Source: Syntrophaceae bacterium
GTDB taxonomy: Bacteria; Desulfobacterota; BSN033; UBA1163
Assembly: GCA_018333715.1 (NCBI GenBank)
Contig: JAGXSW010000069.1
Span: 1 to 36,571 of the forward strand
Length of the DNA: 36,571 nt
Direction: 5' to 3'
Shown here piece after piece: positions 3,565 to 26,872 of this stretch. Numbering within the stretch: position 1 is the first letter of the stretch; every line of letters begins with the position of its first letter. Both the position numbers and the translations under genes were made by a program. Below the pieces are notes generated by a model. The model made no database searches and had not been told where the DNA came from. It saw only the letters and a list, made by a program, of their open reading frames with translations.

Positions 3565-3567
3565 ATC

Positions 3568-5483: not shown

Positions 5484-5553
5484 GACACGAATATCACGAA
5501 TAAAAACGAATGAAACGAATATTCGTGTGATTCGTTCTCATTCGTGCCATTCG
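5484..5553. repeat. palindromic word array: 4 x ACGAAT facing 4 x ATTCGT
   Basis: acgaat at 5487, 5496, 5506 and 5515. attcgt at 5521, 5530, 5540 and 5549. Spacer lengths 3, 4, 3 are mirrored on both arms. Centre is at 5520/5521. Confidence 0.85.
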
Positions 5554-8783: not shown

Positions 8784-9490
8784 AGACACTCATCATCTAT
8801 GACGGAGATTACGGCAAACGGTTCTGGGAAAACATCAGCCGTCATGCTCCAAAACAGTGGGAGGTCCAGGGGTTCCACTATTCTAAAAAGATCCCCCGTT
8901 TTGTCGAAGAGCTTTCCGATTACCTTCCGGGGGACCTCCCCAACTGCGATCTCCTGATCTCCGTTCAGGAGCAACCGGTCCTGGCTGAAATGATCCCCCT
9001 GTTTATAAAAAAGATGGGCGCCAGGGCTGTCATCGCTCCGATTGACAGCAAGGCTTACTTGACTTCAGGTTTGGCAAGACAACTTAAGAAGAAGCTCGAA
9101 AAAGATGGGGTTGAGCTCATCCACCCGATGACCTTTTGCACATTATCGGAGAAGATGTCAAAGAATGAGCTCATTCTGGAGTTTGTCAAATACTTTGGCA
9201 AACCGGAAGTGGAAATTGAAATAGAAAACGAAAAGGTAAAAAAGGTCACGGTCATCAAGGAAGCCCCCTGCGGGAACACGAGGTATGTCGCTGAACATCT
9301 CATCGGAACCCACATCAAGGATGCGGTGGAAAAGGCCGGCATCCTCCACCATAACCATCCCTGCATGGCCGCCATGGTGATGGATGCGGAAATTGGCGAC
9401 ACCCTGATGCATCATGCGGGGTTACAGATCAAGCTGGCCGTGGATGAAGCCATCAAAAAAACAGTGATTCGTGCCTGCACGCCGAAGTGA
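8780..9490 (+). CDS. uncharacterised Cys/His-rich protein inserted between cdhA and cdhB (possibly DUF166/COG1810-like)
   Basis: ATGA start/stop overlap with cdhA. 236 aa with motifs APCGNTRY, HHNHPCMAAM and LMHHAG. The N-terminus MKTLIIYDGDYGKRF reminds me of DUF166 proteins (recollection, unverified). Confidence 0.6.
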   Translation: MKTLIIYDGDYGKRFWENISRHAPKQWEVQGFHYSKKIPRFVEELSDYLPGDLPNCDLLISVQEQPVLAEMIPLFIKKMGARAVIAPIDSKAYLTSGLARQLKKKLEKDGVELIHPMTFCTLSEKMSKNELILEFVKYFGKPEVEIEIENEKVKKVTVIKEAPCGNTRYVAEHLIGTHIKDAVEKAGILHHNHPCMAAMVMDAEIGDTLMHHAGLQIKLAVDEAIKKTVIRACTPK

Positions 9491-11495: not shown

Positions 11496-12866
11496 ATGGC
11501 GCTTAAGGCTTCGGATATTCAGAAAAAACTGCCGGATGGCGGCAAAAAGAATTGCAAAGAATGCGGGTTCCCCACCTGTTTTGCCTTTGCAATGAAACTG
11601 GCATCGGGCGCAGTGACTGTGGATAAGTGTCCCTATCTGCCGGGCGAGATTAGAACAGAACTCGAAGAGGCATTGGCTCCACCCATCAGGCTGGTCACCA
11701 TCGGTGTGGGGGAAAATGCCATGAGTATTGGCGAGGAAGAGGTCATCTACCGACATGAAAAAACCTTTTACAGACCTTCCGGGATCGCCATCCTCATCAC
11801 CGACAAGGAAGATGAGGGAACCATCTCCGCTAAGATCAACAAGCTAAAGACACTCCAGTTTGACCGGGTGGGTCAGAAGCTGAAAGCGAATCTCTTCGCT
11901 TTGAAGTATGCGGGAAATGCTGAGAAGTATCTGGGCCTGGTAAAGAGGGCGGCCGCAGAAGGGTTTCCCATTATTTTAATCTGTGAAGACCTGGACACCC
12001 TGTTTAAAGCAAGGGATCTGATTGCAGATAAAAATCCCCTTCTCTACCCTATCACAAAAGAGAATCTGGATGCCGCTCTTCCGAAGATCAAGGCAAAACC
12101 TACGCCCATCGGAGTGAAGACCGGCGGAATTGAAGAAATCGTTCCCATCACCAAACGGCTCAAGGAAGAAGGCATTCTGGACATCGTCCTCGATCCTTCC
12201 CCTAAATCGTTGAAAGAGATGATCAGGGACTACACCCTTATCCGGAGGGCCGCCCTCAAGAAAACATTCCGGCCTCTGGGCTACCCCATCCTTTCTCTGC
12301 CCTGTATGCTCGCGGAAAATAAGATGGAGGAAATCCTTCTGGCATCGGCAGGAGTGATCAAGTATGCAGGCATCGTCGTCCTCTCCGATTTTGAAAAAGA
12401 GATGCTCTATCCTCTCCTTGTCTTAAGGCAAAACATCTTTACCGATCCGAGGGTTCCCCTTGCGGTGGAGCAGAAAATTTATGAAATCGGAACGGTCTCT
12501 ACCGAATCACCGGTGCTTCTGACGACCAATTTTGCGTTGACCTATTTTGCAGTGGCCAGTGAAATCGAAAATAGTAAAATTCCTGCCTATCTCTGCGTAA
12601 AAGATACGGAAGGTTTATGTGTGCTTGCAGCCTGGTCAACGGGAAAGTTTAGCGGAGACACGGCCGGGCCATTTCTCAAGAAAATAGGAGTCGGAGATAA
12701 AGTTAAGAATAAGAGGGTCATCATCCCTGGATTTGCCGCAAGGATCAAGGGAGAACTTGAAGAGGAATTACAGGGCTGGGAAGTGATTGTGGGTCCCCGT
12801 GAGGCAAGCGATCTGCCCGCCTTTCTTCCCCAGATGATTGAAAAATGGAAGAGTCAGAGCAAATAG
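11496..12866 (+). CDS. acsC: corrinoid Fe-S protein large subunit (ACDS gamma)
   Basis: N-terminal [4Fe-4S] motif CKECGFPTCFAFAMKLASG...DKCP. 456 aa. SD gaggagg. Confidence 0.9.
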   Translation: MALKASDIQKKLPDGGKKNCKECGFPTCFAFAMKLASGAVTVDKCPYLPGEIRTELEEALAPPIRLVTIGVGENAMSIGEEEVIYRHEKTFYRPSGIAILITDKEDEGTISAKINKLKTLQFDRVGQKLKANLFALKYAGNAEKYLGLVKRAAAEGFPIILICEDLDTLFKARDLIADKNPLLYPITKENLDAALPKIKAKPTPIGVKTGGIEEIVPITKRLKEEGILDIVLDPSPKSLKEMIRDYTLIRRAALKKTFRPLGYPILSLPCMLAENKMEEILLASAGVIKYAGIVVLSDFEKEMLYPLLVLRQNIFTDPRVPLAVEQKIYEIGTVSTESPVLLTTNFALTYFAVASEIENSKIPAYLCVKDTEGLCVLAAWSTGKFSGDTAGPFLKKIGVGDKVKNKRVIIPGFAARIKGELEEELQGWEVIVGPREASDLPAFLPQMIEKWKSQSK

Positions 12867-13315
12867 AGGAGATCTTCAGGAGGTTCCATCCGGAGAGAGA
12901 AAATTTACTCCTTCTGCTGCAAGAGATTCAGGAGAAAGTGGGCTACCTCTCAAGGGGGGCGATGGAGAGCGTAGCTCATTTTTTCCATCTCCCTCCTTCT
13001 GAAATTTTTAGCATTGTCACCTTCTACAATCAGTTCAGAAGAAAGCCCCCTGGCCGCGACCCCGTCCATGTCTGTCTGGGGACCGCCTGCTACCTCCTGG
13101 GGGGGAACTTAATCCTCGATGCCTTCTCAAGGGAACTCCATATCGAAAAGGGGGATACGACAGAGGATGGAAATTTCAGCCTCGATGCCACAGCCTGTTT
13201 TGGGTGCTGTAATGTCGCCCCTGTGGTCAAGATCAACAGCCAGATCTACCCTAAAATGACTCCGGGAAAGGTGGAGGAAGTCATCATCAACCTTCGGGAC
13301 AAGGATAAAAACTAA
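12845..13315 (+). CDS. NuoE/HydC-like thioredoxin-fold [2Fe-2S] protein
   Basis: CLGTAC...CFGCCNVAP motif. 156 aa. Overlaps the acsC 3' end by 22 nt. Confidence 0.85.
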   Translation: MEESEQIEEIFRRFHPERENLLLLLQEIQEKVGYLSRGAMESVAHFFHLPPSEIFSIVTFYNQFRRKPPGRDPVHVCLGTACYLLGGNLILDAFSRELHIEKGDTTEDGNFSLDATACFGCCNVAPVVKINSQIYPKMTPGKVEEVIINLRDKDKN

Positions 13316-13361
13316 GCAAGGTTAATGGGTTAGGGTTATGAAGCCCGTTTCGCATATTATT

Positions 13362-13454
13362 GGTCTTATAGTCTTATGGTCGTATAGTCGTATAGTTTAG
13401 AACAAAAAGGTTAATTGACTATTAGACTATCTGACTATAAGACTAACTGACTTA
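13362..13454. repeat. beaded hairpin of the TAGTC/GACTA family
   Basis: Left-arm words (ggtc, atagtc, atggtc, atagtc, atagtt) at 13362-13397 with period 8. Right-arm words (gactat x3, gactaa, gactta) at 13417-13454 with period 8. Ends 2 nt before ATG 13457. Confidence 0.8.
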
Positions 13455-13456
13455 AG

Positions 13457-15340
13457 ATGACCTATTCACAAATCAGAGATCAGGCAATGGAATTCCGCCG
13501 GGAGAAAATGGCCGGCGGGACGCCCAAGATCTTTATCGGGTGCGCCACCTGTGGGGTATCGGTCGGCGCGCTTGAGGTGGCGGAGGCATTTGAAAAAGAG
13601 CTCATCAAACATAACCTCCAGGGAGAGATTATCAAACTGGGATGCCTGGGAATTTGTTTTGCCGAGCCCCTCGTCTATATCACGAAGCAAGGCAACCCCA
13701 CGATCTGCTATAAAAATCTGAAACCGGAAGACGCTTTTAGGATTGTTTACAACTACCTGATTGAAGATGATCCCTGTTTCGATCTGGCCATTGGGACCCT
13801 GGAGATAAAAGAAGGGGGTATTCCCTATATCCCGGAACTTGAAAGATTTGAAAAGGAGGAAAGAATCATCCTCCGGTATGCGGGACTAATCGACCCTGAA
13901 GAGATCAGGGATTATATCGCCCTGGGCGGCTATGAAGCGCTGGACAAAGCCCTATCCATGGGAAAAGAAGAGATCATCGGCGAGGTGAAGCGATCAGGGT
14001 TGAGGGGACTGGGAGGCGCCGGCTTTTCTGCAGGGATGAAATGGGAGGAATGTCTCAAGGCAAAGGAACATCCCAAATATATTGTGTGCAATGGAGATGA
14101 AGGCGATCCAGGCGCCTTCATGGACCGGGTCGTTCTTGAGAGCTCTCCTCACCAGGTCATCGAAGGAATGGCCATTGCTGGCTATTCACTCGACGCCCAC
14201 CAGGGCTACATCTACATCCGTTCAGAATATCCTCTTGCCATCCAAAAGGTCAATCATGCCTTAATGCAGGCCAGGGAGCATCGTCTGCTTGGGAAAGATA
14301 TTTTAGGAAAAGGGTTTGACTTCGACATAAAGGTTTATCCTGGAGCAGGAGCCTTTGTATGCGGTGAGTCCACCGCCCTGATGTATTCGATCGAGGGAAG
14401 AAGGCCCATGCCAAGGGTCAGACCGCCTCATTCTGTTGAGAAGGGCCTCTTTCGTAAACCCACTCTCTTAAATAATGTCAAAACCTTCTCCTGTATCCCC
14501 CCTATCCTGCTGAAGGGGGCGGAGTGGTTTTCAAAAATTGGGACCCTCCATTCGAAAGGGACCACCGTCTTCGCCCTGGCAGGAAAGATCAAGGAATCGG
14601 GTCTGGCTGAGGTGAGGATGGGAACCACCTTAAAAGAGGTCATTTATCAGATCGGAGGAGGGATTAAAGAGGATAAAAGGCTGAAGGCGATCCAGGTGGG
14701 AGGGCCTTCAGGCGGATGTATTCCCGCTCAATATATCGATACGCCGGTTGACTTCGACTCCTTAAAATTTCTTGGTTCGATGATGGGCTCCGGCGGACTG
14801 ATCGCAATGGATGATGAGACCTGCATGGTCGATATGGCCAAATACTTTCTCACTTTCATGCAGAGCGAGAGCTGCGGAAAGTGCACCTTCTGCCGGATAG
14901 GAACCAAGCATCTTCTTCTCCTGTTAGAGGAGATCACAAAGGGGGAAGGGACCCTGGATCATCTCCGCCTTCTCAAAGAACTTTCAGAGGAGATCGTTGA
15001 AGGCTCTCTGTGCGGCCTGGGGCAAACCGCTCCAAATCCCATCCTCACCACCCTGAGGTATTTCGAGAGCGAGTATATTGCCCATGTCGTTGAAAAGAGA
15101 TGTTCGGCTCTGGTCTGCCGCGATCTGATCTCCTATCTGATCGTTTATGATAAGTGCTGGAGAAGCTGTGAACACTGCGTCCTCAAGTGTCCGGCAGAGG
15201 CTATTCATCCGGATGAGAAGAACATCAAGATCATCGACCAAACCAAATGTGTGAAGTGCGGGATCTGTCTGGAGGTCTGCCCCAGGGAATATAATGCTGT
15301 GATCAAGGTCTCACCAAAGATAGGTGTAGCTCAGGATTAA
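13457..15340 (+). CDS. NuoF/HydB-like NADH- and FMN-binding Fe-S flavoprotein
   Basis: N-terminal thioredoxin-like 2Fe-2S domain, RGLGGAGFSAG, CNGDEGDPGAF, ESCGKCTFCR, and C-terminal ferredoxin motifs CWRSCEHCVLKCP / CVKCGICLEVCP. Confidence 0.9.
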   Translation: MTYSQIRDQAMEFRREKMAGGTPKIFIGCATCGVSVGALEVAEAFEKELIKHNLQGEIIKLGCLGICFAEPLVYITKQGNPTICYKNLKPEDAFRIVYNYLIEDDPCFDLAIGTLEIKEGGIPYIPELERFEKEERIILRYAGLIDPEEIRDYIALGGYEALDKALSMGKEEIIGEVKRSGLRGLGGAGFSAGMKWEECLKAKEHPKYIVCNGDEGDPGAFMDRVVLESSPHQVIEGMAIAGYSLDAHQGYIYIRSEYPLAIQKVNHALMQAREHRLLGKDILGKGFDFDIKVYPGAGAFVCGESTALMYSIEGRRPMPRVRPPHSVEKGLFRKPTLLNNVKTFSCIPPILLKGAEWFSKIGTLHSKGTTVFALAGKIKESGLAEVRMGTTLKEVIYQIGGGIKEDKRLKAIQVGGPSGGCIPAQYIDTPVDFDSLKFLGSMMGSGGLIAMDDETCMVDMAKYFLTFMQSESCGKCTFCRIGTKHLLLLLEEITKGEGTLDHLRLLKELSEEIVEGSLCGLGQTAPNPILTTLRYFESEYIAHVVEKRCSALVCRDLISYLIVYDKCWRSCEHCVLKCPAEAIHPDEKNIKIIDQTKCVKCGICLEVCPREYNAVIKVSPKIGVAQD

Positions 15341-15346
15341 AAGAAA

Positions 15347-15410
15347 TGTAGCGTCGGCATTTATTGCCGACGAAAAGGATCATTCGCCCTCAATAAATGA
15401 GGGCGCTACA
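15347..15410. repeat. modular two-hairpin REP-like unit (outer stem tgtagcg/cgctaca)
   Basis: Inner hairpins are tcggca-tttat-tgccga and gccctca-ataaa-tgagggc. The reverse complement shares its first 27 nt with the copy at 25554-25610. Confidence 0.8.
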
Positions 15411-15413
15411 CTA

Positions 15414-15486
15414 CTTATCGTCGTATAGTCAGATAGTCTTTTAGTCAATGACTATAAGACTACGAGACTATAAGACGATATGACTA
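15414..15486. repeat. beaded hairpin of the TAGTC/GACTA family
   Basis: Left words atcgtc, atagtc, atagtc, ttagtc (period 8), 3-nt loop aat, right words gactat, gactac, gactat, gacgat, gacta (period 8). The variant pair atCgtc/gacGat is compensatory. Confidence 0.85.
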
Positions 15487-15498
15487 AAAGGAAACAAC

Positions 15499-16245
15499 AT
15501 GCCATCCATAATCATTGATGGTAAAGAAATAACAGCAGATCCCGGAGAGAAGATCCTCTGGGCCGCTCTCCGTTCGGGGATCTACATCCCCAATCTCTGC
15601 GCCACCGAAGGCGCTGAACTGCCATTCGGAGGATGCCGTTTGTGCATTGTCGAAGTGGAAGTCGGAGGCCGCAGGGAGATGCTCACCGCCTGTTCGGAAA
15701 CAGTCCGTGAGCGGATGAAAGTCTACGTCCATACGGAAAAGATAGCGAGGATGAGACGCACAGCGTTTGAACTCATCATGAGCGACCATCACATCGACTG
15801 CAAAAATTGTGCGAAGGGGAAAACCTGCGAGCTGATCAGGATTTCCTCCACTTTGAAGTGGAGCCTCCGGCCCAAAACCCTGAGGGGCCTTGTCCGTGAT
15901 CTTCCCGTTGACGATTCCCATCCTCTCTTCGCTTATGATCCGAAAAAGTGTGTGAAATGCGGAAAATGTGTTTTCGTGTGCCAGGGTCTCGGGAAATCCT
16001 TTCTCGATTTTGCCTATAGAGGGTTTGAGATGGTTGTCACGACGTTTGATCATCTTCCCCTCTCTTCCCTGGGATGCAAATCCTGCCTGGAGTGTGTGAG
16101 GGTCTGTCCCACGGGCGCTCTCTATCTTAAAGAGACCTCTAAAAACGTCATTCCGGCGAAAGCCGGAATCCAGCAACTTCTGACATCACCGGACCTCTGC
16201 TCTGGAGGTTCCCTTAAAGAGACCGGAGGCCTGGGAGATGGATAG
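15499..16245 (+). CDS. NuoG/HydA N-terminal-like Fe-S protein (2Fe-2S, His-ligated 4Fe-4S, 2x 4Fe-4S), no catalytic domain
   Basis: CATEG...CRLCIVEV...ACSE, HHIDCKNCAKGKTC, CVKCGKCVFVC, CKSCLECVRVCPTG. Only 248 aa. The last ~30 aa are encoded by a REP-like hairpin region. Confidence 0.8.
   Translation: MPSIIIDGKEITADPGEKILWAALRSGIYIPNLCATEGAELPFGGCRLCIVEVEVGGRREMLTACSETVRERMKVYVHTEKIARMRRTAFELIMSDHHIDCKNCAKGKTCELIRISSTLKWSLRPKTLRGLVRDLPVDDSHPLFAYDPKKCVKCGKCVFVCQGLGKSFLDFAYRGFEMVVTTFDHLPLSSLGCKSCLECVRVCPTGALYLKETSKNVIPAKAGIQQLLTSPDLCSGGSLKETGGLGDG
16150..16169. repeat. REP-like hairpin attccggc-gaaa-gccggaat inside the 3' end of the NuoG-like CDS
   Basis: Perfect 8-bp stem with a GAAA loop. 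The same stem (ttccggc/gccggaa) recurs at 31631-31670. Confidence 0.8.
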
Positions 16246-16642
16246 AGAGTTTTTAACCCTGAAGGAGATTGAAGGGGTGGTGGTTCATGATCTCTATCTC
16301 AAAAAAGAAGTGGCCAGGAGATCCGAGGCTTTTGAATATCTCGACGATGTGGAAAAGATGACGGATTACGTTGGCGGAGAGGTTGTGGTCTCCCCTCCTA
16401 TCCGGTGTGATTGGATGATGAAGAAGGTATTCTATCCGGGAGTGGAAGCTTATTTTCTCTATAACCGTAAAGACGAAGAGTTTCCTCCCTCCATGCAGGT
16501 CCTCTTTTCTGGAGGGAAGGCGAGGGAGTTAAAAGGGGATGACCTATCTGTTCTGGCCATCGCCACGATCAATCACATGATTCATTACATCAGGCTTTCC
16601 AATCCTGACAGGTCACTGCCGGAGATCTGCTCTGTGGTTTAG
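16238..16642 (+). CDS. small protein, DUF3786-like C-terminal core (tentative)
   Basis: NRKDEEFPPSMQVLFSGGKARELKGDDLSVLA resembles the DEEFP...LFD...EDL.VL core of DUF3786 proteins that accompany corrinoid/WL genes (recall). Overlaps the upstream gene by 8 nt. Confidence 0.5.
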   Translation: MDREFLTLKEIEGVVVHDLYLKKEVARRSEAFEYLDDVEKMTDYVGGEVVVSPPIRCDWMMKKVFYPGVEAYFLYNRKDEEFPPSMQVLFSGGKARELKGDDLSVLAIATINHMIHYIRLSNPDRSLPEICSVV

Positions 16643-16668
16643 TGACATTTTAAATAGGGAGTGAAAAA

Positions 16669-17700
16669 TTGGCGCAAAAAGATGTCTTAATCATCGGCGG
16701 AGGAATATCGGGAATGACAGTGGCAAAAGAGTTGGCGCAGTCAGGTGTTTCTGCCCTCCTGATTGAAAGAGATCCCTCCTTGGGGGGGCTTGCCGCCTCT
16801 TTCTGTTGTAAGGCTTCTGAATCCTGCAACAAATGTTTTGCCTGCGTGGCGGACAAGAGGGTTTTGGAGATCCGAAATGGGCCCTCCATTTCCATTCTCA
16901 CCCAAACCGAATTGACCGGCCTGAAAGGAGGGCCTGGAGCCTATAACGTCTCCTTGAAAAATGGAAAAGGGAGGATGGATATTGATGTCTCTGCCATCGT
17001 GATTGCGGCGGGAGTCGATCCTTTTGATGCCTCCCTGAAGGCCGAATACGGGTATGGCCGCTATAAAAATGTGATCACCGCCAGGGATCTGGACGAAATG
17101 CTCCGTCTTCGAGGAAAGCTTTTCTGTCCCTCGGACGGGAGACTTCCAAAAACTGTAGCCTTCTTCCAGTGCGTGGGAAGCCGGGATGAGTCCATCGGAA
17201 ACCTTTACTGTTCTCAGGTCTGCTGTGCCTATGCGCTCCGCCTGATCAAGGCGATCCGTTATCAATACCCCGAAACGAAGGCCGCCTTCCTCTATATGGA
17301 CATTCAGCCTGCCGGAGCCTCCTTTGACCAGTTTCTAAACTCCTGCCGGCAGGATAAAGGGATCCGCCTCATCCGGAGCCTTCCCTCAAAGGTCTATCAC
17401 TCTCCCCTCTCCGATGGTTTGAGGGTGAGATTCGTAGATCCTTTAAAGGGCGAGGTGGCGGAAGAGCCTTTCGATCTGATCGTCCTCTCCGTGGGATTGG
17501 TGTTGAGAAAAGATTCGAAATCACTCGCCAGGCTGTTTAATTTGAATTTCAATGAGGAGGGTTTTTTTGCGCCTCCGCCTGCCCAAACCGGCGTCTTCAT
17601 CACTGGGGCTTGCAGTGGACCGAAGGATATTGACCGTTCCATCATTCATGCAAAATCGATCGCCTGCACGGTTCAACAATATCTGAAAGGGAGGAGTTAA
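16669..17700 (+). CDS. hdrA: HdrA-like FAD/Fe-S protein, module 1 of a split tandem HdrA
   Basis: TTG start with SD gggag. LIIGGGISGMTVA, FFQCVGSRDE...CSQVCC, GACSGPKDI. ASFCCKASESCNKCFAC replaces the usual TFPTNDCSMCI motif. Confidence 0.8.
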   Translation: MAQKDVLIIGGGISGMTVAKELAQSGVSALLIERDPSLGGLAASFCCKASESCNKCFACVADKRVLEIRNGPSISILTQTELTGLKGGPGAYNVSLKNGKGRMDIDVSAIVIAAGVDPFDASLKAEYGYGRYKNVITARDLDEMLRLRGKLFCPSDGRLPKTVAFFQCVGSRDESIGNLYCSQVCCAYALRLIKAIRYQYPETKAAFLYMDIQPAGASFDQFLNSCRQDKGIRLIRSLPSKVYHSPLSDGLRVRFVDPLKGEVAEEPFDLIVLSVGLVLRKDSKSLARLFNLNFNEEGFFAPPPAQTGVFITGACSGPKDIDRSIIHAKSIACTVQQYLKGRS

Positions 17701-19416
17701 ATGGCTCGGATCGGTATATTCATCGATGGGATGGGAGGTTCGATCCCTGCCCCCTTTCGGGAAAAGATCGTTTCTGTCATCCGGGGACTCCCGGAGATTG
17801 CTTTCTCTGTTGAGGAAGAGAACCTCGCCTCTCCCGGGGCATTGCAAAGGATGGCTGAACATCTGAAGGCAGAGGAGGTGGATAGGGCGGTCATCCTCGG
17901 AGGAAGCCCCAAACTCTATGAGACTTCATTTAATAAATTTGGATATCCTGTTCTTCTCAATCCCTATCTCCTCACAGTGGCCAATCTGAAGGAACAGACC
18001 CTTCAGGCCGTGGCCAATGAAGAGGAGGCCGTTGAAAAAGCCCGAAAGATGATGATCAAAGCGATTCATCTGGCCTCTTCCTCCGGCCCCATTGAGTCCC
18101 GATCCCTTCCATTGACGCCCCAAACCCTGGTCATCGGAGGAGGAATTACAGGGATCGCCATCGCTCTTGCCCTGGCGCGATCAGGAATCCAGGTCTATCT
18201 CCTGGAGAAGGGGAAACATCTGGGCGGTAAGGCTTTGGAACTTCGCAGGTTTTATAACCGGCCCGAAGAAGTTCAGAAGTGGGTGGAGGAGAAGGTCTCC
18301 GAAATCAGCCGGAATTCCCGTATCACCGTGATCAGTGAAACAGAGCTGAAGCGGCTCGATGGCCATCTGGGCCGCTTCCAGGCAACAGTCCGGAAGGCGA
18401 ACGGAACGGAAGCGGTTCTCTCTCCCTCTGCCATCGTCGTCGCAACAGGATATGAAGTGGAACGAAACCGGAAGGGAATTTATGGCCACAGGAGTTTTAT
18501 CTCCTTTGCTGAAATGGAAACGCTTCTGGCCGAAAACGAGATCCCTTCTCTTCTCAGAAATGGGAAAAGGGTTGAATCGGTCGCCTTCCTTCTCGGTGAA
18601 GTCAATGGGGATGTGAAGATCGATTCGATCAATGCGGTCAAACAGAGCCTTCTCCTTCAGGAGGCATTCCAATGTCAGACAGTCATTCTCTGCAAGGACC
18701 TGAAGGTCTCTTCAGATGGAATGGAGCGGCTCTACCGGAGGGCGAGAGAGCGAGGCGCCCTCTTTATCAAATTTGAGGAGCCTCCGAAGCTCTCCATCGT
18801 CAACGGTCAGATTCAGGTCGATGTAAAGGACACGTCGGCCATTCGCAAGGAGGATGAATGGCCTCTCTCCATTCTTTCGGATCTCATTGTCCTGAGCGAT
18901 GCTCTCATCCCGAACCCTGAGACTGAAAATCTTTGCAGGATTCTCGGCCTCCATCGGGGAAACCGTGGATTTTTCATGGAGGATAATCCCCAGCTCCTCC
19001 GGGTGAGATCGAATCGAAGGGGAATCTTTGTGGCCGGGGGATGCCGGTTCCCGCAGGAAGTTTCGGAAACCCTGAACGAGGCAGGGGCAACGGCGCAGGA
19101 GGTGATCGCCCTTCTTTCAGGCGGGATTTATCCTTACGATCTTTCCGTCGCAGAGGTCGATCCCGAGAAATGCGCAGTCTGTCTCACCTGTCCCAGGCTC
19201 TGTCCTCATTCCGCGATCACTGTGGAGAAGTATGCGGAGAAGAATATCTATATCACTCCGGGAATCGGAGAAGGGGTGAAGTGGGGAGCCGCCAGAGTTG
19301 ACCCCGTTGCCTGTTATGGATGCGGAATCTGTGTCGGCGAATGCCCTGCAAAAGCGATCACGCTTCGCCATCAGCCCGATGAATTGATCTATGCCCAGAT
19401 GAACCTTAGTGATTGA
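17701..19416 (+). CDS. hdrA: HdrA-like FAD/Fe-S protein, module 2 of a split tandem HdrA
   Basis: ATG directly follows TAA (17698-17703). ARIGIFIDGMGGSI aligns with PRIGVFVCHCGINI of the fused paralogs. VIGGGITGIAIA. C-terminal CAVCLTCPRLCP / CYGCGICVGECP. Confidence 0.8.
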   Translation: MARIGIFIDGMGGSIPAPFREKIVSVIRGLPEIAFSVEEENLASPGALQRMAEHLKAEEVDRAVILGGSPKLYETSFNKFGYPVLLNPYLLTVANLKEQTLQAVANEEEAVEKARKMMIKAIHLASSSGPIESRSLPLTPQTLVIGGGITGIAIALALARSGIQVYLLEKGKHLGGKALELRRFYNRPEEVQKWVEEKVSEISRNSRITVISETELKRLDGHLGRFQATVRKANGTEAVLSPSAIVVATGYEVERNRKGIYGHRSFISFAEMETLLAENEIPSLLRNGKRVESVAFLLGEVNGDVKIDSINAVKQSLLLQEAFQCQTVILCKDLKVSSDGMERLYRRARERGALFIKFEEPPKLSIVNGQIQVDVKDTSAIRKEDEWPLSILSDLIVLSDALIPNPETENLCRILGLHRGNRGFFMEDNPQLLRVRSNRRGIFVAGGCRFPQEVSETLNEAGATAQEVIALLSGGIYPYDLSVAEVDPEKCAVCLTCPRLCPHSAITVEKYAEKNIYITPGIGEGVKWGAARVDPVACYGCGICVGECPAKAITLRHQPDELIYAQMNLSD

Positions 19417-19418
19417 TA

Positions 19419-19448
19419 GGGAGATGGGGAGATGGGGAGATGGGGAGA
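19419..19448. repeat. tandem 8-nt repeat GGGGAGAT (about 3.75 units)
   Basis: Direct reading, 2 nt after the hdrA stop. A complementary atctcccc lies at 19592-19599. Confidence 0.85.
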
Positions 19449-19588
19449 AAATTAATAACCAAACACCAAATTCCAATCACCAAATAAGCACCAATGTCCA
19501 AAATCCAAAATTTCAAACAAAACCATTTAGATCATTGGTAATTGGAATTTATTAACAGTATCATAATTGAATTGACATAAACATTGGA

Positions 19589-19662
19589 AAATCTCCCCTA
19601 CCCCTCTTTGCCAAAGAGGGGTAATTCCTCCCTTAGAAAAAGGGAGGTCAGGAGGGATTTTA
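19589..19662. repeat. purine/pyrimidine-tract multi-hairpin unit (short member of the aaaatccctcccc family)
   Basis: Outer pairing aaaatctcccct / aggagggatttt. Inner hairpins cccctcttt-gcc-aaagagggg and cctccctt-agaaa-aagggagg. Confidence 0.75.
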
Positions 19663-19687
19663 CAAATTAGATGAGTGGAGAGTTTAC

Positions 19688-20098
19688 ATGGTAAACTTTG
19701 AGCCTAAGATTGTGGCTTTTTGTTGTGACCAGTCCGGATATCCTGCCGCAGATATGGCGGGAGGTCTGGAACTCAACTTTCCCGGTAACGTTGAGTTCGT
19801 CCGGGTTCCTTGTGCGGGTCGAATCGAAACCCTCTATCTCCTGAAAGCGCTGGAAAGAGGAGCGGACGGGGTTCTGATCTTCGCCTGTTACGAAGAGAAC
19901 TGCCAATTCCTCAGGGGGAATCTCCGGGCAAAAAGCCGTCTCTCCTATGCCCATCGACTCCTGGAGAAAATCGGACTGGAGAAAGAACGAATCGAAATCT
20001 GCCATCTCGCCACCAATTGCGGCCCTAAGTTGGCGGAGACCCTTCACCGAAAATCGGAACAGTTGAAAAAACTGGGACCCAACCCGGCCAAAATATAA
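19688..20098 (+). CDS. mvhD: MvhD-like [2Fe-2S] electron-transfer subunit
   Basis: FEPKIVAFCCDQSGYPAADMAG...VRVPCAGRIE...GADGVLIFACYEENCQFLRGN. 136 aa. Confidence 0.9.
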   Translation: MVNFEPKIVAFCCDQSGYPAADMAGGLELNFPGNVEFVRVPCAGRIETLYLLKALERGADGVLIFACYEENCQFLRGNLRAKSRLSYAHRLLEKIGLEKERIEICHLATNCGPKLAETLHRKSEQLKKLGPNPAKI

Positions 20099-20102
20099 GT
20101 TC

Positions 20103-20236
20103 GGGAATAATGGAATGGTGGAAAGTTGGAATATTGGGAATACAAACAAATACAAAATATGAACGAAAGTCGCCTAAAGGAAGCGAAGCTTTCTTTACCC
20201 ATGATTCCAGTATTCCAATATTCCATTCTTCCATGT
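20103..20236. repeat. GGAAT/ATTCC word hairpin with a central small hairpin
   Basis: Left arm ggaat-type words at 20104, 20112, 20119, 20127 and 20136. Right arm attcc words within 20198-20236. Centre hairpin gaaag-tcgc...gcga-ag-ctttc. Confidence 0.7.
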
Positions 20237-20254
20237 TCTTTTTAGGAGGCATTC

Positions 20255-20926
20255 ATGATCAAGGCTGAACAGAAACCGTTGGAAGAGATTTTACTTTATC
20301 TTAAATCTTATGACAGAATCCTCTTGTCGGGGTGTGGGGCATGCGTCACCGTCTGCCAGGCCGGAGGCGAAAAGGAAGTGGGGCTTCTCGCTTCCGCTCT
20401 TCGGATGGCGAGAATGAAGATGGGAACCCCCCTCGAAGCGCTGGAAGCGACCCCTGCGCGTCAGTGTGAACCCGAATTTGCCGCCGAGCTATCGGAGACC
20501 GTTGAAAAGGTCGAAGCGGTCCTCTCCGTGGCCTGTGGAGTGGGTGTTCAGACGCTGGCGCGCCATTTCCCAAAGACTCCGGTCTTTCCGGGTGTCAATA
20601 CAACCTTTCTGGGTGAAACAGTGACCCACGGAGTCTGGGAAGAACGGTGCCAGGCCTGTGGAAATTGCATTCTCGAGAGGACAGGGGGCGTCTGCCCGGT
20701 CGCCCGTTGCGCCAAACAACTCTTCAACGGACCCTGCGGCGGCTCCTCGAAAGGGAAGTGCGAAATCAAAAGAGAAGCGGATTGCGCCTGGCAACTCATC
20801 TATGACCGGCTCAATGGACTGGGACAACTTTACAGGATGGAAGAAATCATCCCGGCCAGGCGATGGGGTGTCGAATCGAGAGACAGTGGATTAAGAAGGA
20901 TCGTGAGGGAGGATCTCAAAGTATGA
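20255..20926 (+). CDS. metV: MetV (methylene-THF reductase-associated Cys-rich subunit)
   Basis: LLSGCGACVTVCQAGG, CQACGNCILERTGGVCPVARCAKQLFNGPCGG. 223 aa, immediately upstream of metF. Confidence 0.85.
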   Translation: MIKAEQKPLEEILLYLKSYDRILLSGCGACVTVCQAGGEKEVGLLASALRMARMKMGTPLEALEATPARQCEPEFAAELSETVEKVEAVLSVACGVGVQTLARHFPKTPVFPGVNTTFLGETVTHGVWEERCQACGNCILERTGGVCPVARCAKQLFNGPCGGSSKGKCEIKREADCAWQLIYDRLNGLGQLYRMEEIIPARRWGVESRDSGLRRIVREDLKV

Positions 20927-21846
20927 AAGCTGGAAGCAATCTCGAAAATGTTTTATCAAAAGGCCTCTTTGCGGTGACAGGCGAACTGGGTCCTCCAAAG
21001 GGAAACGAAGTAAGCGTCATCAAACGGAAGGCGGACCTCCTGAGGGGTTATGTCGATGCGGTCAATGTCACCGACAATCAGACGGCGATTGTCCGGATGT
21101 CGAGCATTGCCGCCTCAAGCCTCCTTCTCCAGATGGGGATCGAGCCTGTGATGCAGATGACGACCCGTGACCGGAATCGCATCGCCATCCAGAGCGACCT
21201 CTTTGGGGCAACCGCCTTTGGCATCAAGAACATGCTCTGCCTCACCGGAGACCATCACACCTTTGGAAATCAGGTCGATTCAAAGAATGTTCACGATCTC
21301 GACTCCATCCAGTTGATCGACTGTGTTCGAACGATGAGAGATCAAGGAACATTGCTCGGCGGGGAGGAGAAGATAGAGGGGGAGATTAAACTCTTCATCG
21401 GCGCAGCGGAGAATCCTTTTGGCGATCCATTCGAGTTCCGGGCCATCCGTTTGGCCAAGAAGGTAGCCGCAGGGGTTGACTTCATCCAGACTCAGTGTAT
21501 ATATGATATGAACCGTTTCAAGGAGTGGATGAAGATGGTGAGGAATCTCGGTCTTCACGAAAAGGTCCATATCCTGGCCGGTGTGACTCCCCTTAAATCT
21601 GGAGGTATGGCTCGATATATGGCCAAGAATGTTTCGGGAATTATCATCCCGGATGAGATCATTGACCGGATTGTGAAAGCGAAGAAACCGGCTGAAGAAG
21701 GGATCAAGCTCTGTGTCGAGCAGATCCAGGAATTGAGAGAGATAGGAGGAGTTCACGGGGTCCACATCATGGCCATCGAATGGGAGCAGATGACGAGTCA
21801 GATCACGGAGATGGCTGGATTGTTACCCCGTCCCAAGGTAGCTTGA
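20923..21846 (+). CDS. metF: 5,10-methylene-THF reductase
   Basis: ATGA overlap with the metV stop. VTGELGPPKG, DAVNVTDN, LTGDHHTFGN. The ORF-track start 20863 lies inside metV. Confidence 0.9.
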   Translation: MKAGSNLENVLSKGLFAVTGELGPPKGNEVSVIKRKADLLRGYVDAVNVTDNQTAIVRMSSIAASSLLLQMGIEPVMQMTTRDRNRIAIQSDLFGATAFGIKNMLCLTGDHHTFGNQVDSKNVHDLDSIQLIDCVRTMRDQGTLLGGEEKIEGEIKLFIGAAENPFGDPFEFRAIRLAKKVAAGVDFIQTQCIYDMNRFKEWMKMVRNLGLHEKVHILAGVTPLKSGGMARYMAKNVSGIIIPDEIIDRIVKAKKPAEEGIKLCVEQIQELREIGGVHGVHIMAIEWEQMTSQITEMAGLLPRPKVA

Positions 21847-22096: not shown

Positions 22097-22969
22097 ATGA
22101 CATTCAAAGAACGTTTGGAATCGGGAAAGTTTGTTGTCGTCGCTGAACTCCAGCCCCCAAAAGGAATCGATCTCTCCGAGGTCCATGAACATGCGGAACG
22201 ATGGAGGGGCCGCGTGGACGCGGTCAATATTCCGGATCTTCAGAATGCCATCATGAGGCTGGGCTCCCTCTCGGTATGCGCCCTCCTGAAGGGAAAGGGG
22301 ATCGAGGTCATCTATAACCTCTCCTGCAGCAACCGAAACCGATTGGCCCTTCAATCCGAACTTCTCAATGTCTCTGCCCTTGGCCTGAAGAATCTCCTCC
22401 TGCTCCAGGGTGACCACCCCTCCATTGGAGATCATTTTGAAGCCCAGCCTGTCCTTGATCTCGATGTGATCGGCTTGCTCGGCGCCGCCAAACGCCTCCA
22501 GGAAGGCTATGATCTCATGGGCAACGATCTCAAAGGGAAACCCGTATTCTTTGTCGGTACCCAGGTCAATGCGGCAGCCAAAGGCCATATCCTTGACCTC
22601 GAGGTGATGGATATGGAAAAGAAGATCCGTCAGGGGGTCGATTTTTTCTTCACCGGTTCCATCTATGAACCAGGTCTTCTGGAGACCTTCGTCAAGAAGG
22701 TCGCCCATTTTAAGGTCCCCATTATCGTGTCCATCACCCTGCTCAAATCAGTCGGGATGGCCCGTTATATCAATAAGCATGTGGAAGGGGCGTCCATTCC
22801 CGACTCCGTCATCGATCTCTTGCTCAAGGCTTCGGACAAACAGAAAACGTGCATCGAAATTGCCGGAGATTTCATCAGGGCCGCGAAACCGCTCTGCCAG
22901 GGCGTTCAGATCATTCCCCTTGGATGGGAAAATCTGGTCCCTGCCCTTCTCGACCAGGTCGGGTTATAA
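22097..22969 (+). CDS. metF: second MetF-family methylene-THF reductase paralog
   Basis: VVAELQPPKG, DAVNIPDL, LQGDHPSIGD. 290 aa. SD ggagg. Confidence 0.8.
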   Translation: MTFKERLESGKFVVVAELQPPKGIDLSEVHEHAERWRGRVDAVNIPDLQNAIMRLGSLSVCALLKGKGIEVIYNLSCSNRNRLALQSELLNVSALGLKNLLLLQGDHPSIGDHFEAQPVLDLDVIGLLGAAKRLQEGYDLMGNDLKGKPVFFVGTQVNAAAKGHILDLEVMDMEKKIRQGVDFFFTGSIYEPGLLETFVKKVAHFKVPIIVSITLLKSVGMARYINKHVEGASIPDSVIDLLLKASDKQKTCIEIAGDFIRAAKPLCQGVQIIPLGWENLVPALLDQVGL

Positions 22970-22977
22970 AAAAAGAA

Positions 22978-24927
22978 ATGATGGCCAGGAAACTCTCTCC
23001 ATCGCAGAAAAAAAGAAAGCCGACTGAACGGCTCACCCTTGTCAACAAGAGGATCGAGTCCGGAATGTTCCATGCCATCGCCGAGCTGGGGAATGACGGG
23101 ATATTGGTATTCGAAGAAAACCATCGGATCGAATACGCTAATCGGGTGGCCTCTGAGATCACCGGATATTCGAATGAAGAGTTGCTGAAGATGACCGTGC
23201 TCTCACTTCTCGACACACCCGATCAATCATTTGTGGAGAATATCTTCATCCATCCCGAACGATATGGGGAAAAAACCTGCACCGAAGCCCATTTGATCAC
23301 CTCCGCCGGAGGGGTCAAGGAGGCTGAGGTCTGCATTGCCCTGACCGAAACATCACATGGGGTTCGTAAAGGCTACGCTTATCTCAAGGACATCACGGAC
23401 CGGAAAAATTTTGAAAGGGACTTAAAGGACTCCGAGGAAAAGCTCCGGAGGCTCTTCGAAAGGGTAAGGCATGGCCTCTTCATCAGTTCGAAGGAGGGCA
23501 GGTTTCTGGATTGCAACCAGGCCCTCCTTGACATGCTCGGTTATTCCGATAAAGAAGAGTTTCTCAAGATCGATATTGTAGGGGATCTCTATGTGAACCC
23601 TGAAGACCGAAAACTTTTCAGGGAGAGGACCGAGAGGGACGGCTATGTCAAAGATTTGGAAGTGGAATTCAAGAAGAAGAATGGGGGAAAAATTACGGTC
23701 CTGTTAACCGGCCATCCCATCAAAAATGAAGACGGAGAAATTATCGGTTACGAAGGAATTAACCTGGATATCACCGAGCGGAAACGGATTGAAGACGAGC
23801 TCCGTGAGGCCAATGAATTCTTCATGAATCTGATTGAGAGTTCCGTTGATAGCATTATCGCCGCGGATATGAAGGGCAATATTTTCATCTTCAATAAAGG
23901 AGCGGAGGCGCTGACAGGATACACGGCAGAAGAGGTCATTGGGAAACTTCACATTACAAAGATTTATCCGGAGGGCGTGGCCAAAGAGGTTATGAAGAAA
24001 CTCCGAAGCCCGCAATATGGCGGGGTCGGGAAATTTATACCCACTCAGCTTAATGTCGTCAATAAGTTTGGAGAAGAAATGTCAGTCCAGCTTTCCGCCG
24101 CCCTCATTTACAACGGAGCGGGCCAGGAGATTGCCAGTGTCGGCATCTTTACGGACCTGAGGCCCCGCCTGTTGATGGAGAAGAAACTTCAGGAGACACA
24201 CCTCCAGCTCGTTAGCTCCGAGAAGATGGCCTCTCTCGGAAAGCTGGCCGCAGGCATCGCCCACGAGATCAACAATCCTCTGGGCGGCATTCTCATCTAT
24301 TCCAGCCTGATGATGGAAGACCTCCCGGAGGAAGACCCCAAACGGGGGGACCTCGCCCGAATTGTCCAGGAGGCGGGGCGATGTAAGGAGATTGTGAAAA
24401 GCCTGCTCGAATTTGCCCGTCAGACCGAACCGAAGAAGGATCCCACGGATATCAACCGGGCCATCAACGACGGACTCTTCTTCTTGGTCAACCAGGCCCT
24501 CTTTCATAATATCCGGATCGTCAAGAGCCTTGACCCCTTCTTGCCCTTTGTGCGAGGAAATTCAGGCCAACTGAAACAGGTCTTTATGAACATCATCGTC
24601 AATGCGGCAGAGGCCATGCATGGCAATGGGACCTTAAACATCGCCACATCGCCCTCTCCGGATAGGAAAACCGTGTGGATTGAATTTGCGGACACGGGTG
24701 AAGGCATCCCCGAGGAGAATCTCTCCCGCATCTTCGACCCCTTTTTTACCACAAAGGACGTGGGCAAAGGGACCGGGTTGGGTTTAGCGACTTCATATGG
24801 AATTGTTCAAGACCATGGAGGAACCATCAATGTCAGGAGTAAAGTCGGTTTAGGGACGTCTTTTATCATCGAACTTCCCGTCCAATCCCAAACGCAACCC
24901 ATTCTGGAGGGACAATCCCTTCAATGA
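22978..24927 (+). CDS. cytoplasmic multi-PAS sensor histidine kinase
   Basis: Three PAS-like segments. H-box [12 protein letters not shown]-box [11 protein letters not shown]1 DTGEGI, G2 GTGLGL. No obvious TM segment. ATG lies 8 nt after the metF2 stop. Confidence 0.9.
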
Positions 24928-24940
24928 GGCGAGGTCGATA

Positions 24941-25480
24941 ATGAATTCAAATTCTCTTCTCTCGGAAGTGGCTCAGGTCAGCGGCGAAAAAGTGCAGGCT
25001 TGCTATCAGTGTCAAAAATGTTCGGCAGGCTGTCCGGTCGCCTATGCCATGGACATCCTTCCCAATCAGGTGCTTCGTCACATTCAATATGACCACAGGG
25101 AAAAAGTCCTCGGCTCAAAAACGATCTGGATCTGCGCATCCTGTTATGCCTGCAGCGTTCGTTGTCCCAATAATATCGATATTGCCCGGATCATGGATAC
25201 CCTGAGGGAGATTGCCAATCGATCGGGGATCAAACCGGGGGAAAAGGATGTCCCGGTCTTTCATTCCGTCTTCCTCGATACCATCAAATCGAAAGGCCGG
25301 ATCCACGAGCTGAGCCTTATCCTCCAGTTTAAAATAAAAACGAGAGACTTCTTCAAGGATGCTTCCCTGGGATTGAAGATGTACCGTAAAGGGAAGATCA
25401 AACTCTTTCCGTCCAAGTTCGGAGGGGGAAAAGAGATCAAGGAGATCTTCAACTCATTTGAGAAAAGGGAAGTGAAGTGA
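24941..25480 (+). CDS. hdrC: heterodisulfide reductase subunit C-like (2x[4Fe-4S])
   Basis: CYQCQKCSAGCPV and CASCYACSVRCPNNID. 179 aa. Confidence 0.85.
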   Translation: MNSNSLLSEVAQVSGEKVQACYQCQKCSAGCPVAYAMDILPNQVLRHIQYDHREKVLGSKTIWICASCYACSVRCPNNIDIARIMDTLREIANRSGIKPGEKDVPVFHSVFLDTIKSKGRIHELSLILQFKIKTRDFFKDASLGLKMYRKGKIKLFPSKFGGGKEIKEIFNSFEKREVK

Positions 25481-25485
25481 TGAAT

Positions 25486-25712
25486 CACCAAATTCCAAAC
25501 ACCAATAACCAAAATTTAATCCCCTCAGTTATGGGGAAGATTTTTATAATATATGTAGCGCCCTCATTTATTGAGGGCGGAGTCCGTCCCGACTAAATCG
25601 GGACGCTACAAAAAGAGTGTTTGGTTATTGGAGCTTATTTGGAGCTTGCCTGCGCCTGCCCTGCCTACCGGCAGGCAGGCGCAGGCAGGGAATTTGGTGA
25701 TTGGAATTTCAA
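25486..25712. repeat. nested palindrome complex between hdrC and hdrB
   Basis: Outer ATTGG-word arms (25486-25515 versus 25619-25631 plus 25690-25710) enclose a two-hairpin REP unit (25554-25610) and a GC-rich palindrome gcctgcgcctgcc...ggcaggcgcaggc (about 25648-25689). Confidence 0.75.
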
Positions 25713-25734
25713 TCATTGACCAAGGAGATAAAAG

Positions 25735-26654: not shown

Positions 26655-26800
26655 TTGTAACATTTTAGCTATTTGAAAAAACTTCATAAAATCCCTCCCC
26701 ACCTCCCTTTGCCCTCCGGGTCAGAGACCGCTCTGGGTCGGAGACCAAAGGGAGGAGAAATACTTCCCTCTTTGAAAAAGGGGGACTGAGGGGGATTTAG
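26655..26800. repeat. copy of the aaaatccctcccc multi-hairpin element (left end homologous to 32542-32600)
   Basis: About 56 nt, ttgtaaca...cttcataaaatccctccccacctcccttt, are near-identical to 32542-32597. An extra nested hairpin sits in the first loop. No right TIR is seen. Confidence 0.75.
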
Positions 26801-26872
26801 GATTTGTTTCGAATTGGTCCTAAGAGGACGCTTCGCCCGATATTCGGATTTCGGATTTAAGTGAGGGAAATA

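Follow-up and report, generated by a model that had tools for sequence, protein, structure and literature searches.

A Bfu-type trio between an archaeal-type CODH/ACS cassette and an HdrA–MvhD–MetVF block in a Syntrophaceae bacterium

The electron carriers that feed the CO2/CO and methylene-tetrahydrofolate (methylene-THF) steps decide energy conservation on the Wood–Ljungdahl pathway, and they have been debated for decades. We analysed a 36,571-nt stretch of DNA from a Syntrophaceae bacterium (GCA_018333715.1, contig JAGXSW010000069.1), hereafter the window, in which a trio of NuoE-, NuoF- and short NuoG-like genes lies between acsC, of the cassette for carbon monoxide dehydrogenase and acetyl-CoA synthase (CODH/ACS), and a block of hdrA, mvhD, metV and metF genes. 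An earlier note on this DNA had joined trio and block into an NADH-dependent methylene-THF reductase (MTHFR) of mixed design. Comparison with relatives led us to favour, by a modest preference, another reading, namely that two evolutionarily and probably functionally separate Wood–Ljungdahl modules stand side by side, with the trio belonging to the CODH/ACS–corrinoid protein cassette, because acsC is its constant neighbour and the HdrA block follows it in only 4 of 10 loci.

Closest described systems and the genes of the window

Several described systems combine similar parts. Among the Bfu enzymes, Wor-Bfu has been structurally solved (PDB 9mqx) and Codh-Bfu has been predicted (Schut et al. 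2022, PMC9304861), the latter for the CooS-type CODH of Firmicutes, in which the CODH genes stand between bfuB and bfuA and BfuB falls in clade 49. In the class II benzoyl-CoA reductase of Geobacter metallireducens, Bam[(BC)2DEFGHI]2, BamGHI, BamF and BamE were found by cryo-electron microscopy to form one confurcating-then-bifurcating machine, where BamE, an HdrA dimer in fused form, has one flavin adenine dinucleotide (FAD) domain that bifurcates and one that is structural (bioRxiv preprint 10.64898/2026.04.10.717634). An X-type MTHFR, with a NuoEFG homologue encoded 5' of metFV, was proposed for Dethiosulfatarculus sandiegensis, Desulfobacterales and Chloroflexi (Yi et al. 2021, PMC8515935); the earlier note's list of known reductases, with RnfC2- and HdrABC-type systems alone, was thus incomplete. 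In addition, nuoEF beside CODH/ACS was noted in passing for NPL-UPA2 (PMC6305446). Both module types of the window are known, and a NuoEFG-linked MTHFR as well as nuoEF beside CODH/ACS have been mentioned before without analysis. The consistent embedding of Bfu-type NuoEF and short NuoG, together with a DUF3786 protein, in bacterial archaeal-type cdh operons appears to be undescribed in the searchable literature, as does the separability of the trio from the Hdr–MetVF block.

The genes in question were all found on the + strand, with the boundaries given by the earlier note:

11496–12866, + strand: acsC/cdhE, large subunit of the corrinoid iron–sulfur protein (CFeSP) (Pfam CdhD, E 8e-88, and FeS PF04060)
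12845–13315, + strand: BfuC/NuoE-like [2Fe-2S] thioredoxin-like subunit (PF01257, E 2e-44)
13457–15340, + strand: BfuB/NuoF-like subunit binding flavin mononucleotide (FMN) and NAD(H), 627 aa (PF01512, SLBB, PF10589)
15499–16245, + strand: short BfuA, a NuoG/HydA N-terminal-like Fe-S relay, 248 aa (Fer2_4, NADH-G_4Fe-4S_3, Fer4)
16238–16642, + strand: short DUF3786 protein, 134 aa (PF12654, E 1.4e-8)
16669–17700, + strand: HdrA1, 343 aa (5odc_A, E 5e-63)
17701–19416, + strand: HdrA2, 571 aa (HdrA N-domain, TrxR-like FAD domain, C-terminal 2x[4Fe-4S])
19688–20098, + strand: MvhD-like [2Fe-2S] adaptor (PF02662, E 4e-39)
20255–20926, + strand: MetV, Fe-S/zinc-ribbon subunit of MetVF (PF12225, E 1e-36)
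20923–21846, + strand: MetF, methylene-THF reductase (PF02219, E 4e-41)

The acsC gene is the final one of the archaeal-type cdh cassette, and its 22-nt overlap with nuoE, already remarked in the earlier note, proved real and is kept in two relatives (L001 and L086; L numbers denote the loci compared here). The true start of metF is most likely at 20923 rather than 20863, because the relatives are 307 aa long and the later start gives a 4-nt ATGA overlap with metV. The earlier note ended its region at 21846, where metF does stop; the conserved block, however, runs on beyond. A 230-aa antisense open reading frame (ORF) at 15484–16176 on the − strand, wholly inside the nuoG-like gene, is very likely spurious.

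As judged from its sequences, the trio is a bona fide type-2 BfuCBA whose BfuA has no catalytic domain. It was placed in the Bfu family because its Pfam domain set equals the InterPro family definition: PF01512, PF10531, PF10589 and Fer4 families were all present in the NuoF-like protein; a NuoE-type PF01257 protein is encoded immediately 5' of nuoF; and the short NuoG-like protein carries Fer2_4, NADH-G_4Fe-4S_3 and Fer4_7 and was aligned to HydA residues 5–212. The NuoF-like protein, which carries a [2Fe-2S] domain at its N-terminus and a 2x[4Fe-4S] domain at its C-terminus, matched solved BfuB/HydB/NfnB chains over its full length (residues 13–615, E 2e-199 to 1e-168; 9n5u_B at E 2e-199, 7t2r_B, 8a6t_B, 7p5h_B and 9mqx_B), whereas complex I NuoF covered the core alone, from ~135 to ~549 at ~1e-103, without either extension. 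Its cluster Cys ligands and FMN/NADH motifs were invariant among the relatives. The 248-aa BfuA gave its best PDB matches to the N-termini of HydA and FdsA, and is predicted to hold a [2Fe-2S], a His-ligated [4Fe-4S] and two further [4Fe-4S] centres; its lack of a catalytic domain, as pointed out in the earlier note, was borne out by the Pfam domains. A stand-alone BfuA of 247 aa is known from the solved structure of a complex with a tungsten oxidoreductase (9mqx_A). Identity as complex I NuoEFG was rejected on scores below the NCBIfam cut-offs for NuoF (TIGR01959, 451.9 versus 558.65), NuoG (TIGR01973, 103 versus 470) and NuoE (138.5 versus 141), and no nuoA–N genes were found in the window.

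The trio thus shares with Wor-Bfu and Codh-Bfu the domain and cofactor set of BfuB and BfuC and a BfuA cut down to an Fe-S relay of ~247 aa; as in those enzymes, the third reaction would be supplied by an extra enzyme encoded alongside. As in Codh-Bfu, Ni-CODH genes and bfuABC lie in one cluster. The window differs in that its CODH, of the archaeal CdhA type and accompanied by an epsilon subunit, is encoded 5' of bfuC, and in that a DUF3786 gene is added.

The DUF3786 protein of the window spans only positions 68–174 of the 176 in the profile. Its short form was represented by 61 clusters at 50–100% identity, nearly all of 134 aa (few of 97–137 aa), and from these sequences is specific to this trio clade. 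The residues His17, Asp18, Cys57, Trp59 and Cys131 were invariant and His113 nearly so, which hints at a metal or cluster site. The predicted model was of high confidence (pLDDT 94.5) and found no fold match in the PDB, the best Foldseek hit (E 0.24) being uninformative.

Module assignment in the earlier note was also sound for the second half of the region, in which HdrA, MvhD and MetVF are Moorella-like. The tandem HdrA is indeed split, with a TAA stop at 17698–17700 and an ATG immediately after; selenocysteine read-through joining the two parts was ruled out, as the stop codon is TAA. HdrA1 consists of the TrxR-like FAD core alone, with a CxGSRD...CSxxCC [4Fe-4S] motif and without ferredoxin domains, the same architecture as sHdrA (6tjr_A). 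HdrA2, a protein of ~571 aa with hundreds of homologues, has lost the cluster cysteines of its N-domain, and its TrxR-like domain is without the Cys motif. As hallmarks of bifurcation we took the CxGxRD...CSxxCC motif next to a TrxR-like FAD and Lys409/Glu356 at the flavin N5 (M. thermolithotrophicus numbering); in HMMER alignments, the latter positions were Lys/Glu in HdrA2 and Arg/Asp in HdrA1. The MvhD of the window fell below the NCBIfam VhuD-like cut-off and is without selenocysteine.

The genes metF, metV, mvhD and hdrA form one block, kept in more than 20 loci. As in the type IV/6S systems of Moorella thermoacetica and Sporomusa ovata, they stand beside acs genes, and HdrC- and HdrB-like genes, whose partner may be HdrA1A2 or HdrL, lie in the same conserved block. 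Unlike in the Moorella-type system, HdrA here takes the form of a 343-aa core and a separate, degenerate copy of 571 aa; HdrCB lies 3 kb 3', behind MetF2 and a PAS kinase, and next comes HdrL, which is 1518 aa long and includes an NAD(P)H domain. With the type III MetVF–RnfC2 of Acetobacterium woodii, the window has in common a NuoF-related NADH/FMN subunit that could feed MetVF; RnfC2, however, is a single subunit without NuoE/NuoG partners and without HdrA/MvhD, and the NCBIfam RnfC model matched the window NuoF weakly (58 bits, cut-off 246).

What the trio and the HdrA block travel with

Gene contexts were gathered by exact-protein look-ups of NuoF and HdrA2 homologues, by a genome scan and by a metagenome scan with MetV, and neighbours were classified by tblastn with the window proteins as queries. 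This sampling was opportunistic: among the matches listed by the genome scan the relatives were at most 58% identical, and the close relatives came through the exact-protein look-ups. The trio clade, defined by NuoF identity of at least 70%, comprised 10 distinct loci.

In all 10 of these loci acsC adjoined the trio, and DUF3786 was present in nine; acsC also adjoined nuoE in L008, L172 and L173. The series cdhA-cdhB-cdhC-acsC stood directly 5' of the trio in L001, L002, L008, L086, L089 and L090, and likewise directly 5' of the Bfu genes in L092, L093, L097, L172 and L173. The 3' side was far more variable, with the HdrA block in four loci, a different MetF set (MetF', NarI-like, HdrC-like, cytochrome c, MetV' and MetF2) in two, pyruvate:ferredoxin oxidoreductase genes in one, and, in the remaining three, either nothing of the Wood–Ljungdahl pathway or (L091) acsC-acsE. 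The last locus is a compact unit, nuoE-nuoF-nuoG'-DUF3786-acsC-acsE, whose acsC is of another kind (57% to the bacterial type). A separate operon of acsC and the trio, facing the remaining acs genes, was found in L004.

Deeper relatives pointed the same way. L172 (63%) reads cdhA-DUF166-cdhB-cdhC-acsC-nuoE-nuoF, with housekeeping genes on both sides, and L173 (60%) reads cdhABC-acsC-nuoE-nuoF-cooC; neither has an Hdr or MetF gene nearby. L008 (57%) combines the whole cdh cassette with the trio and with DUF3786 at full length, and in L007 the cdh genes are bracketed by Bfu genes. In L006 (1–9125, 58% identity), which among species representatives is the nearest relative of the trio, the trio is followed by genes for a methyltransferase resembling MtaA/URO-D, a corrinoid protein that binds B12 and an activase similar to RACo.

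In a neighbour-joining (NJ) tree, the window NuoF fell in a clade of mostly ACS- or DUF3786-linked trios, in which L006 and L087 instead have corrinoid-system and CooC/DUF3786 neighbours, respectively. This clade was sister to orphan stand-alone trios, and lay apart from the NuoFs of systems with a NuoG::HdrA fusion and from hydrogenase- and Nfn-type BfuBs. A link to hydrogenase or formate dehydrogenase (FDH) was rejected: none was found in the trio clade, and BfuA proteins with an H-cluster or molybdopterin domain occurred only in relatives of ~50% identity. A BamGHI-like context for the sister clade was ruled out as well, since housekeeping genes flank those trios.

Viewed from the other side, 16 orthologous HdrA1–HdrA2–MvhD–MetVF blocks had at least 3 kb upstream visible. 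The trio lay 5' of four of them, bacterial-type acsA-acsB-acsC-acsE without a trio lay 5' of seven, and other neighbours preceded the remaining five. The co-occurrence of the trio with hdrA-mvhD-metVF, which the earlier note had named as a check of its idea, therefore failed, with 12 of 16 blocks and 6 of 10 trio loci standing separately. Meanwhile, the block proteins of the window were 76–92% identical to those of the trio-less loci, where the ACS genes were only 42–50% identical, and it is thus precisely at the junction of DUF3786 and hdrA1 that relatedness breaks. The DUF3786–hdrA1 spacing in the relatives was 80–181 nt, compared with 80–298 nt for acsE–hdrA1 in the trio-less loci.

In L173 (positions 1–3680, GCA_020724525.1), an FDH-type Bfu set (a fused NuoE::NuoF, an Fe-S protein and an FdhA with NuoG-like N-terminus) lies directly 5' of the cdhABC-acsC-nuoEF-cooC operon; it was dismissed as a partner of the trio, being a separate gene set. 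In L087 (6330–8220), an HD-domain gene and an opposite-strand CAP12-PCTIR TIR-domain gene lie between NuoEF-CooC-DUF3786 and hdrA1, and an HD-domain gene is also found 5' of hdrA1 in L099 and L101.

Possible roles of the trio

In the reading of two modules that we favour, the first (12845–16642) would be a type-2 Bfu unit with the short DUF3786 protein and would form part of the archaeal-type CODH/ACS–CFeSP cassette ending in acsC. NAD(H) would react at the FMN of BfuB and ferredoxin at its extra clusters, while the BfuA clusters would relay electrons to or from the CODH/ACS–CFeSP machinery, where either CdhA or the cluster of AcsC may be the direct partner. NADH and ferredoxin together could thereby be tied to the low-potential CO2/CO step or to the CFeSP cluster, as in the predicted Codh-Bfu. 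By the rationale given for that enzyme, the effective CO2/CO potential could fall between those of NADH and ferredoxin, because CO would be very low inside ACS. The second module (16669–21846, and on to ~26586) would be a separate Moorella-like MTHFR, in which HdrA1 and HdrA2 form a heterodimer-like pair in place of the HdrA homodimer, MvhD acts as adaptor and MetVF as catalytic high-potential output. A candidate donor to HdrA1A2–MvhD–MetVF is HdrL, encoded in the same conserved block and equipped with an NAD(P)H domain.

A further step, that the trio and DUF3786 are a physically attached, bifurcating NAD(H)/ferredoxin module of the archaeal-type CODH/ACS–CFeSP in bacteria ("Cdh-Bfu"), is put forward only tentatively. 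If it held, NADH would provide half of the electrons that reduce CO2 on the way to acetyl-CoA and, in reverse, acetyl-CoA oxidation would yield NADH and reduced ferredoxin. A Bfu module linked to an archaeal-type CODH/ACS would alter the balance of ferredoxin and ATP that is assumed for many Desulfobacterota and Chloroflexi of the subsurface.

Several observations weigh against the separation of the two modules or its functional meaning. The juxtaposition of trio and HdrA genes is kept in five lineages with NuoF identities of 81–93%, and the gap between DUF3786 and hdrA1 is just 26 nt in the window. Module 2 has no obvious donor module for MvhD/HdrA1A2. No AcsC::NuoE or other trio–ACS fusion was found; in the 150 best representatives, AcsC was fused with AcsE alone. 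A general clustering of Wood–Ljungdahl genes could account in part for the synteny with acsC, and the sister-clade trios stand alone without any redox neighbours, so that the trio might work without a fixed partner. In addition, the NJ tree carries no support values, and the region occurred in no RNA run in a sequencing-run search.

Modelled on Bam, the mixed-design reductase of the earlier note would make one complex of all these proteins. BfuCBA would oxidize NADH, with or without reduced ferredoxin, and pass electrons via BfuA and MvhD to the HdrA1/HdrA2 flavin, which would bifurcate them, on the high-potential side through MetVF to methylene-THF and on the low-potential side to ferredoxin or a different acceptor; in acetyl-CoA oxidation the flow would be reversed. 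The genes do lie on one strand across that short gap, in an arrangement shared with L086, L092, L093 and L097, and the parts list matches BamGHI–BamF–BamE. Coupling of a Bfu unit to HdrA–MvhD is physically possible, because the BamB–I structure couples the same module types: HydBC-type NADH/ferredoxin input (BamGH), the short NuoG-like BamI, the MvhD-like BamF and a pair of TrxR units resembling HdrA. Each of these types of part has its gene in the window, with the order unchanged, and HdrA1 and HdrA2 together resemble the fused HdrA dimer BamE. In Bam, however, the two HdrA units are one polypeptide, not two genes, and the outputs are a tungsten enzyme and BamD/ETF, where that of the window would be MetVF; moreover, comparative synteny does not tie the window trio to the HdrA units. 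Single ORFs in which a NuoG-like N-terminus is fused to a tandem HdrA (L020, 1091 aa; L053, 1081 aa; L070) also lend the idea some weight; the fusion gene is flanked by NuoE–NuoF and MvhD–MetV–MetF in L020 and L157, and an X-type NuoEFG–MetFV reductase has been proposed in the literature. Yet these fusion proteins are orthologous to HdrA3/HdrL (~52%) rather than to HdrA1/HdrA2 (28–31%), their MvhD matches MvhD3, and the X-type NuoFs lie elsewhere in the NJ tree; Bam and the NuoG::HdrA systems alike use different paralogues. Whether the trio is there goes with the kind of ACS cassette and not with the MTHFR block; 12 of 16 blocks lack an adjacent trio, 6 of 10 trio loci lack an HdrA block, and the DUF3786–hdrA1 spacing is no tighter than that of acsE–hdrA1 in trio-less loci. 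The earlier note was thus right about the module types, but the specific link it drew failed the co-occurrence check among the relatives; a hybrid reductase is possible and is not the best reading, and we regard it as doubtful. Still less probable is that the same Bfu module additionally feeds MvhD/HdrA1A2–MetVF and wires both Wood–Ljungdahl branches to one hub, which we consider very unlikely. Two other roles were weighed. The trio and DUF3786 might serve corrinoid proteins, bringing NADH/ferredoxin electrons to the AcsC [4Fe-4S] cluster or to a RACo-type activase for the reduction of Co(II) to Co(I). The nearest gene is always acsC and not cdhA, the L091 locus has trio, DUF3786, acsC and acsE and is free of CODH genes, L006 places the trio beside the methyltransferase, B12-binding protein and activase genes, and a RACo gene opens the cluster of the window. 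Reactivation, however, is an occasional repair that RACo already performs, for which a three-subunit NADH/ferredoxin enzyme seems oversized; L172 and L173 lack BfuA and DUF3786 yet retain nuoEF at the end of cdhABC-acsC; and neither a fusion nor an informative fold match of DUF3786 was found. We hold this role to be unlikely. A free-standing soluble NADH/ferredoxin-linked oxidoreductase with no fixed partner, merely co-regulated with the Wood–Ljungdahl genes, is suggested by the sister clade L009–L017, where nuoE-nuoF-short nuoG operons are isolated among housekeeping genes. It is nonetheless quite improbable, in that a BfuA without catalytic domain requires a third redox partner under the Bfu scheme, and the adjacency to acsC recurs across gene orders and acsC types, beyond what co-regulation requires.

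The loci with the NuoG::HdrA fusion (L020 and L157) are very probably the X-type MTHFR of Yi et al.; as X-type we took L020, L157, L154, L134 and L164. The window resembles them in having NuoE/NuoF-like genes on the same strand directly 5' of an HdrA-type gene, MvhD, MetV and MetF. There, in contrast, a tandem HdrA, of the HdrA3 paralogue, carries the NuoG-like domain as a fusion, no DUF3786 or acsC stands beside it, MetV is only 55–62% identical and NuoF belongs to other clades. Conserved linkage within the same orthologous groups, by which the window could be counted as X-type, was likewise not observed (4 of 16 blocks; HdrA3/MvhD3 matches). Across all loci, four kinds of input module were seen before MvhD–MetVF, namely HdrA as a split pair, HdrA as a fused tandem, HdrL (which includes an NAD(P)H domain) and NuoEF with the NuoG::HdrA fusion. 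As a candidate for the long-sought methylene-THF reductase that bifurcates and depends on NADH, the last kind is the better one.

Wider cluster and intergenic elements

Every substantial ORF of the window lies on the + strand, and the whole forms one large Wood–Ljungdahl cluster. Its 5' part encodes, in order, RACo (the first gene of the cluster), FolD, CooC, AcsE, AcsD, CdhA, DUF166, CdhB, CdhC and AcsC. CdhA is archaeal-type, 767 aa long and has a ferredoxin insert, CdhB is the epsilon subunit and CdhC is short. The DUF166 gene (8780–9490) between cdhA and cdhB keeps this position in nearly all archaeal-type cassettes seen (L001, L002, L086, L089, L090 and L172), and is absent from it in L008 and L173. 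The 3' part comprises:

22097–26586, + strand: MetF2, PAS histidine kinase, HdrC-like and HdrB-like genes (Pfam)
26861–36419, + strand: HdrL-like gene, MvhD fusion, fused tandem HdrA3 and MvhD3 (Pfam)

MetF2 occupies 22097–22969 and the HdrC- and HdrB-like genes 24941–26586. The genes from MetF2 to HdrB form one conserved block with HdrA1A2–MvhD–MetVF, at 75–98% identity in L086–L088 and L092–L123. The HdrL-like protein (1518 aa) has a GltD/NfnB-like NAD(P)H domain, and the fused tandem HdrA3 is 1018 aa long; HdrL corresponds to HdrA3 with the NAD(P)H module inserted. Three HdrA-type systems are thus present in one cluster, each large HdrA being followed by an MvhD of its own. Elsewhere, HdrL- or HdrA3-like genes lie directly 5' of MvhD-MetVF (L135, L141, L153, L162; L137–L169).

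A second MTHFR-like set, of which the window retains MetF2 alone, was found at L001 13174–17577 and L089 13088–17437, and also in L119, L121 and L123. It encodes MetF', a 221-aa protein with a weak NarI/cytochrome b-like match, a Fer4_8/17 HdrC-like protein, a cytochrome c3/c7, MetV' and MetF2, and these may make up a methylene-THF reductase linked to quinone or cytochrome.

Among named relatives, the Rifle metagenome-assembled genome (MAG) "Deltaproteobacteria bacterium RBG_16_49_23" is the nearest (NuoF 93%, DUF3786 87%), and the host is an uncultured Desulfobacterota lineage related to this MAG. Most of the region was found only in three subsurface DNA runs of 2017, other DNA runs holding at most 10% of its words.

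A scan for promoters and terminators gave counts not above those of shuffled controls; the same uninformative scan returned no terminator-like site between DUF3786 and hdrA1. An Rfam scan of the window matched no family. The gaps flanking nuoF hold strong hairpins:

13316–13456, + strand: intergenic hairpin whose TAGTC/GACTA units recur with an 8-nt period (D1 family of repeats; I7 and I13 among the inverted repeats); folded as RNA, −47.9 kcal/mol, z −5.6
15341–15498, + strand: three intergenic hairpins, including a second TAGTC/GACTA periodic palindrome; −59.8 kcal/mol, z −8.6

Long imperfect palindromes of short units with this 8-nt period recur in the gaps at 3482–3572, 5488–5553, 13363–13453, 15412–15494, 19451–19550, 20111–20233 and 25483–25709. 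Their units vary by gap (TAGTC/GACTA, ACGAAT, TGGAA/TTCCA and GGAAT-type), and they fold as strong hairpins (z −4 to −8.6). They are shared with the closest relatives (L092, L093 and L097) and not with more distant ones, and may be intercistronic elements of mRNA stability or processing. An exact 26-nt hairpin element occurs in inverted copies at 15385–15410, in the gap between nuoF and nuoG', and at 25554–25579, between hdrC and hdrB. A 59-nt direct repeat, 92% identical, lies 5' of hdrL (26655–26713) and 5' of hdrA3 (32542–32600), and its complement was found 5' of mvhD at 19626–19662. Straight after hdrA3, a perfect 26-bp inverted repeat (35846–35922) gave an RNA fold of −41.8 kcal/mol with a z-score of −9.9.

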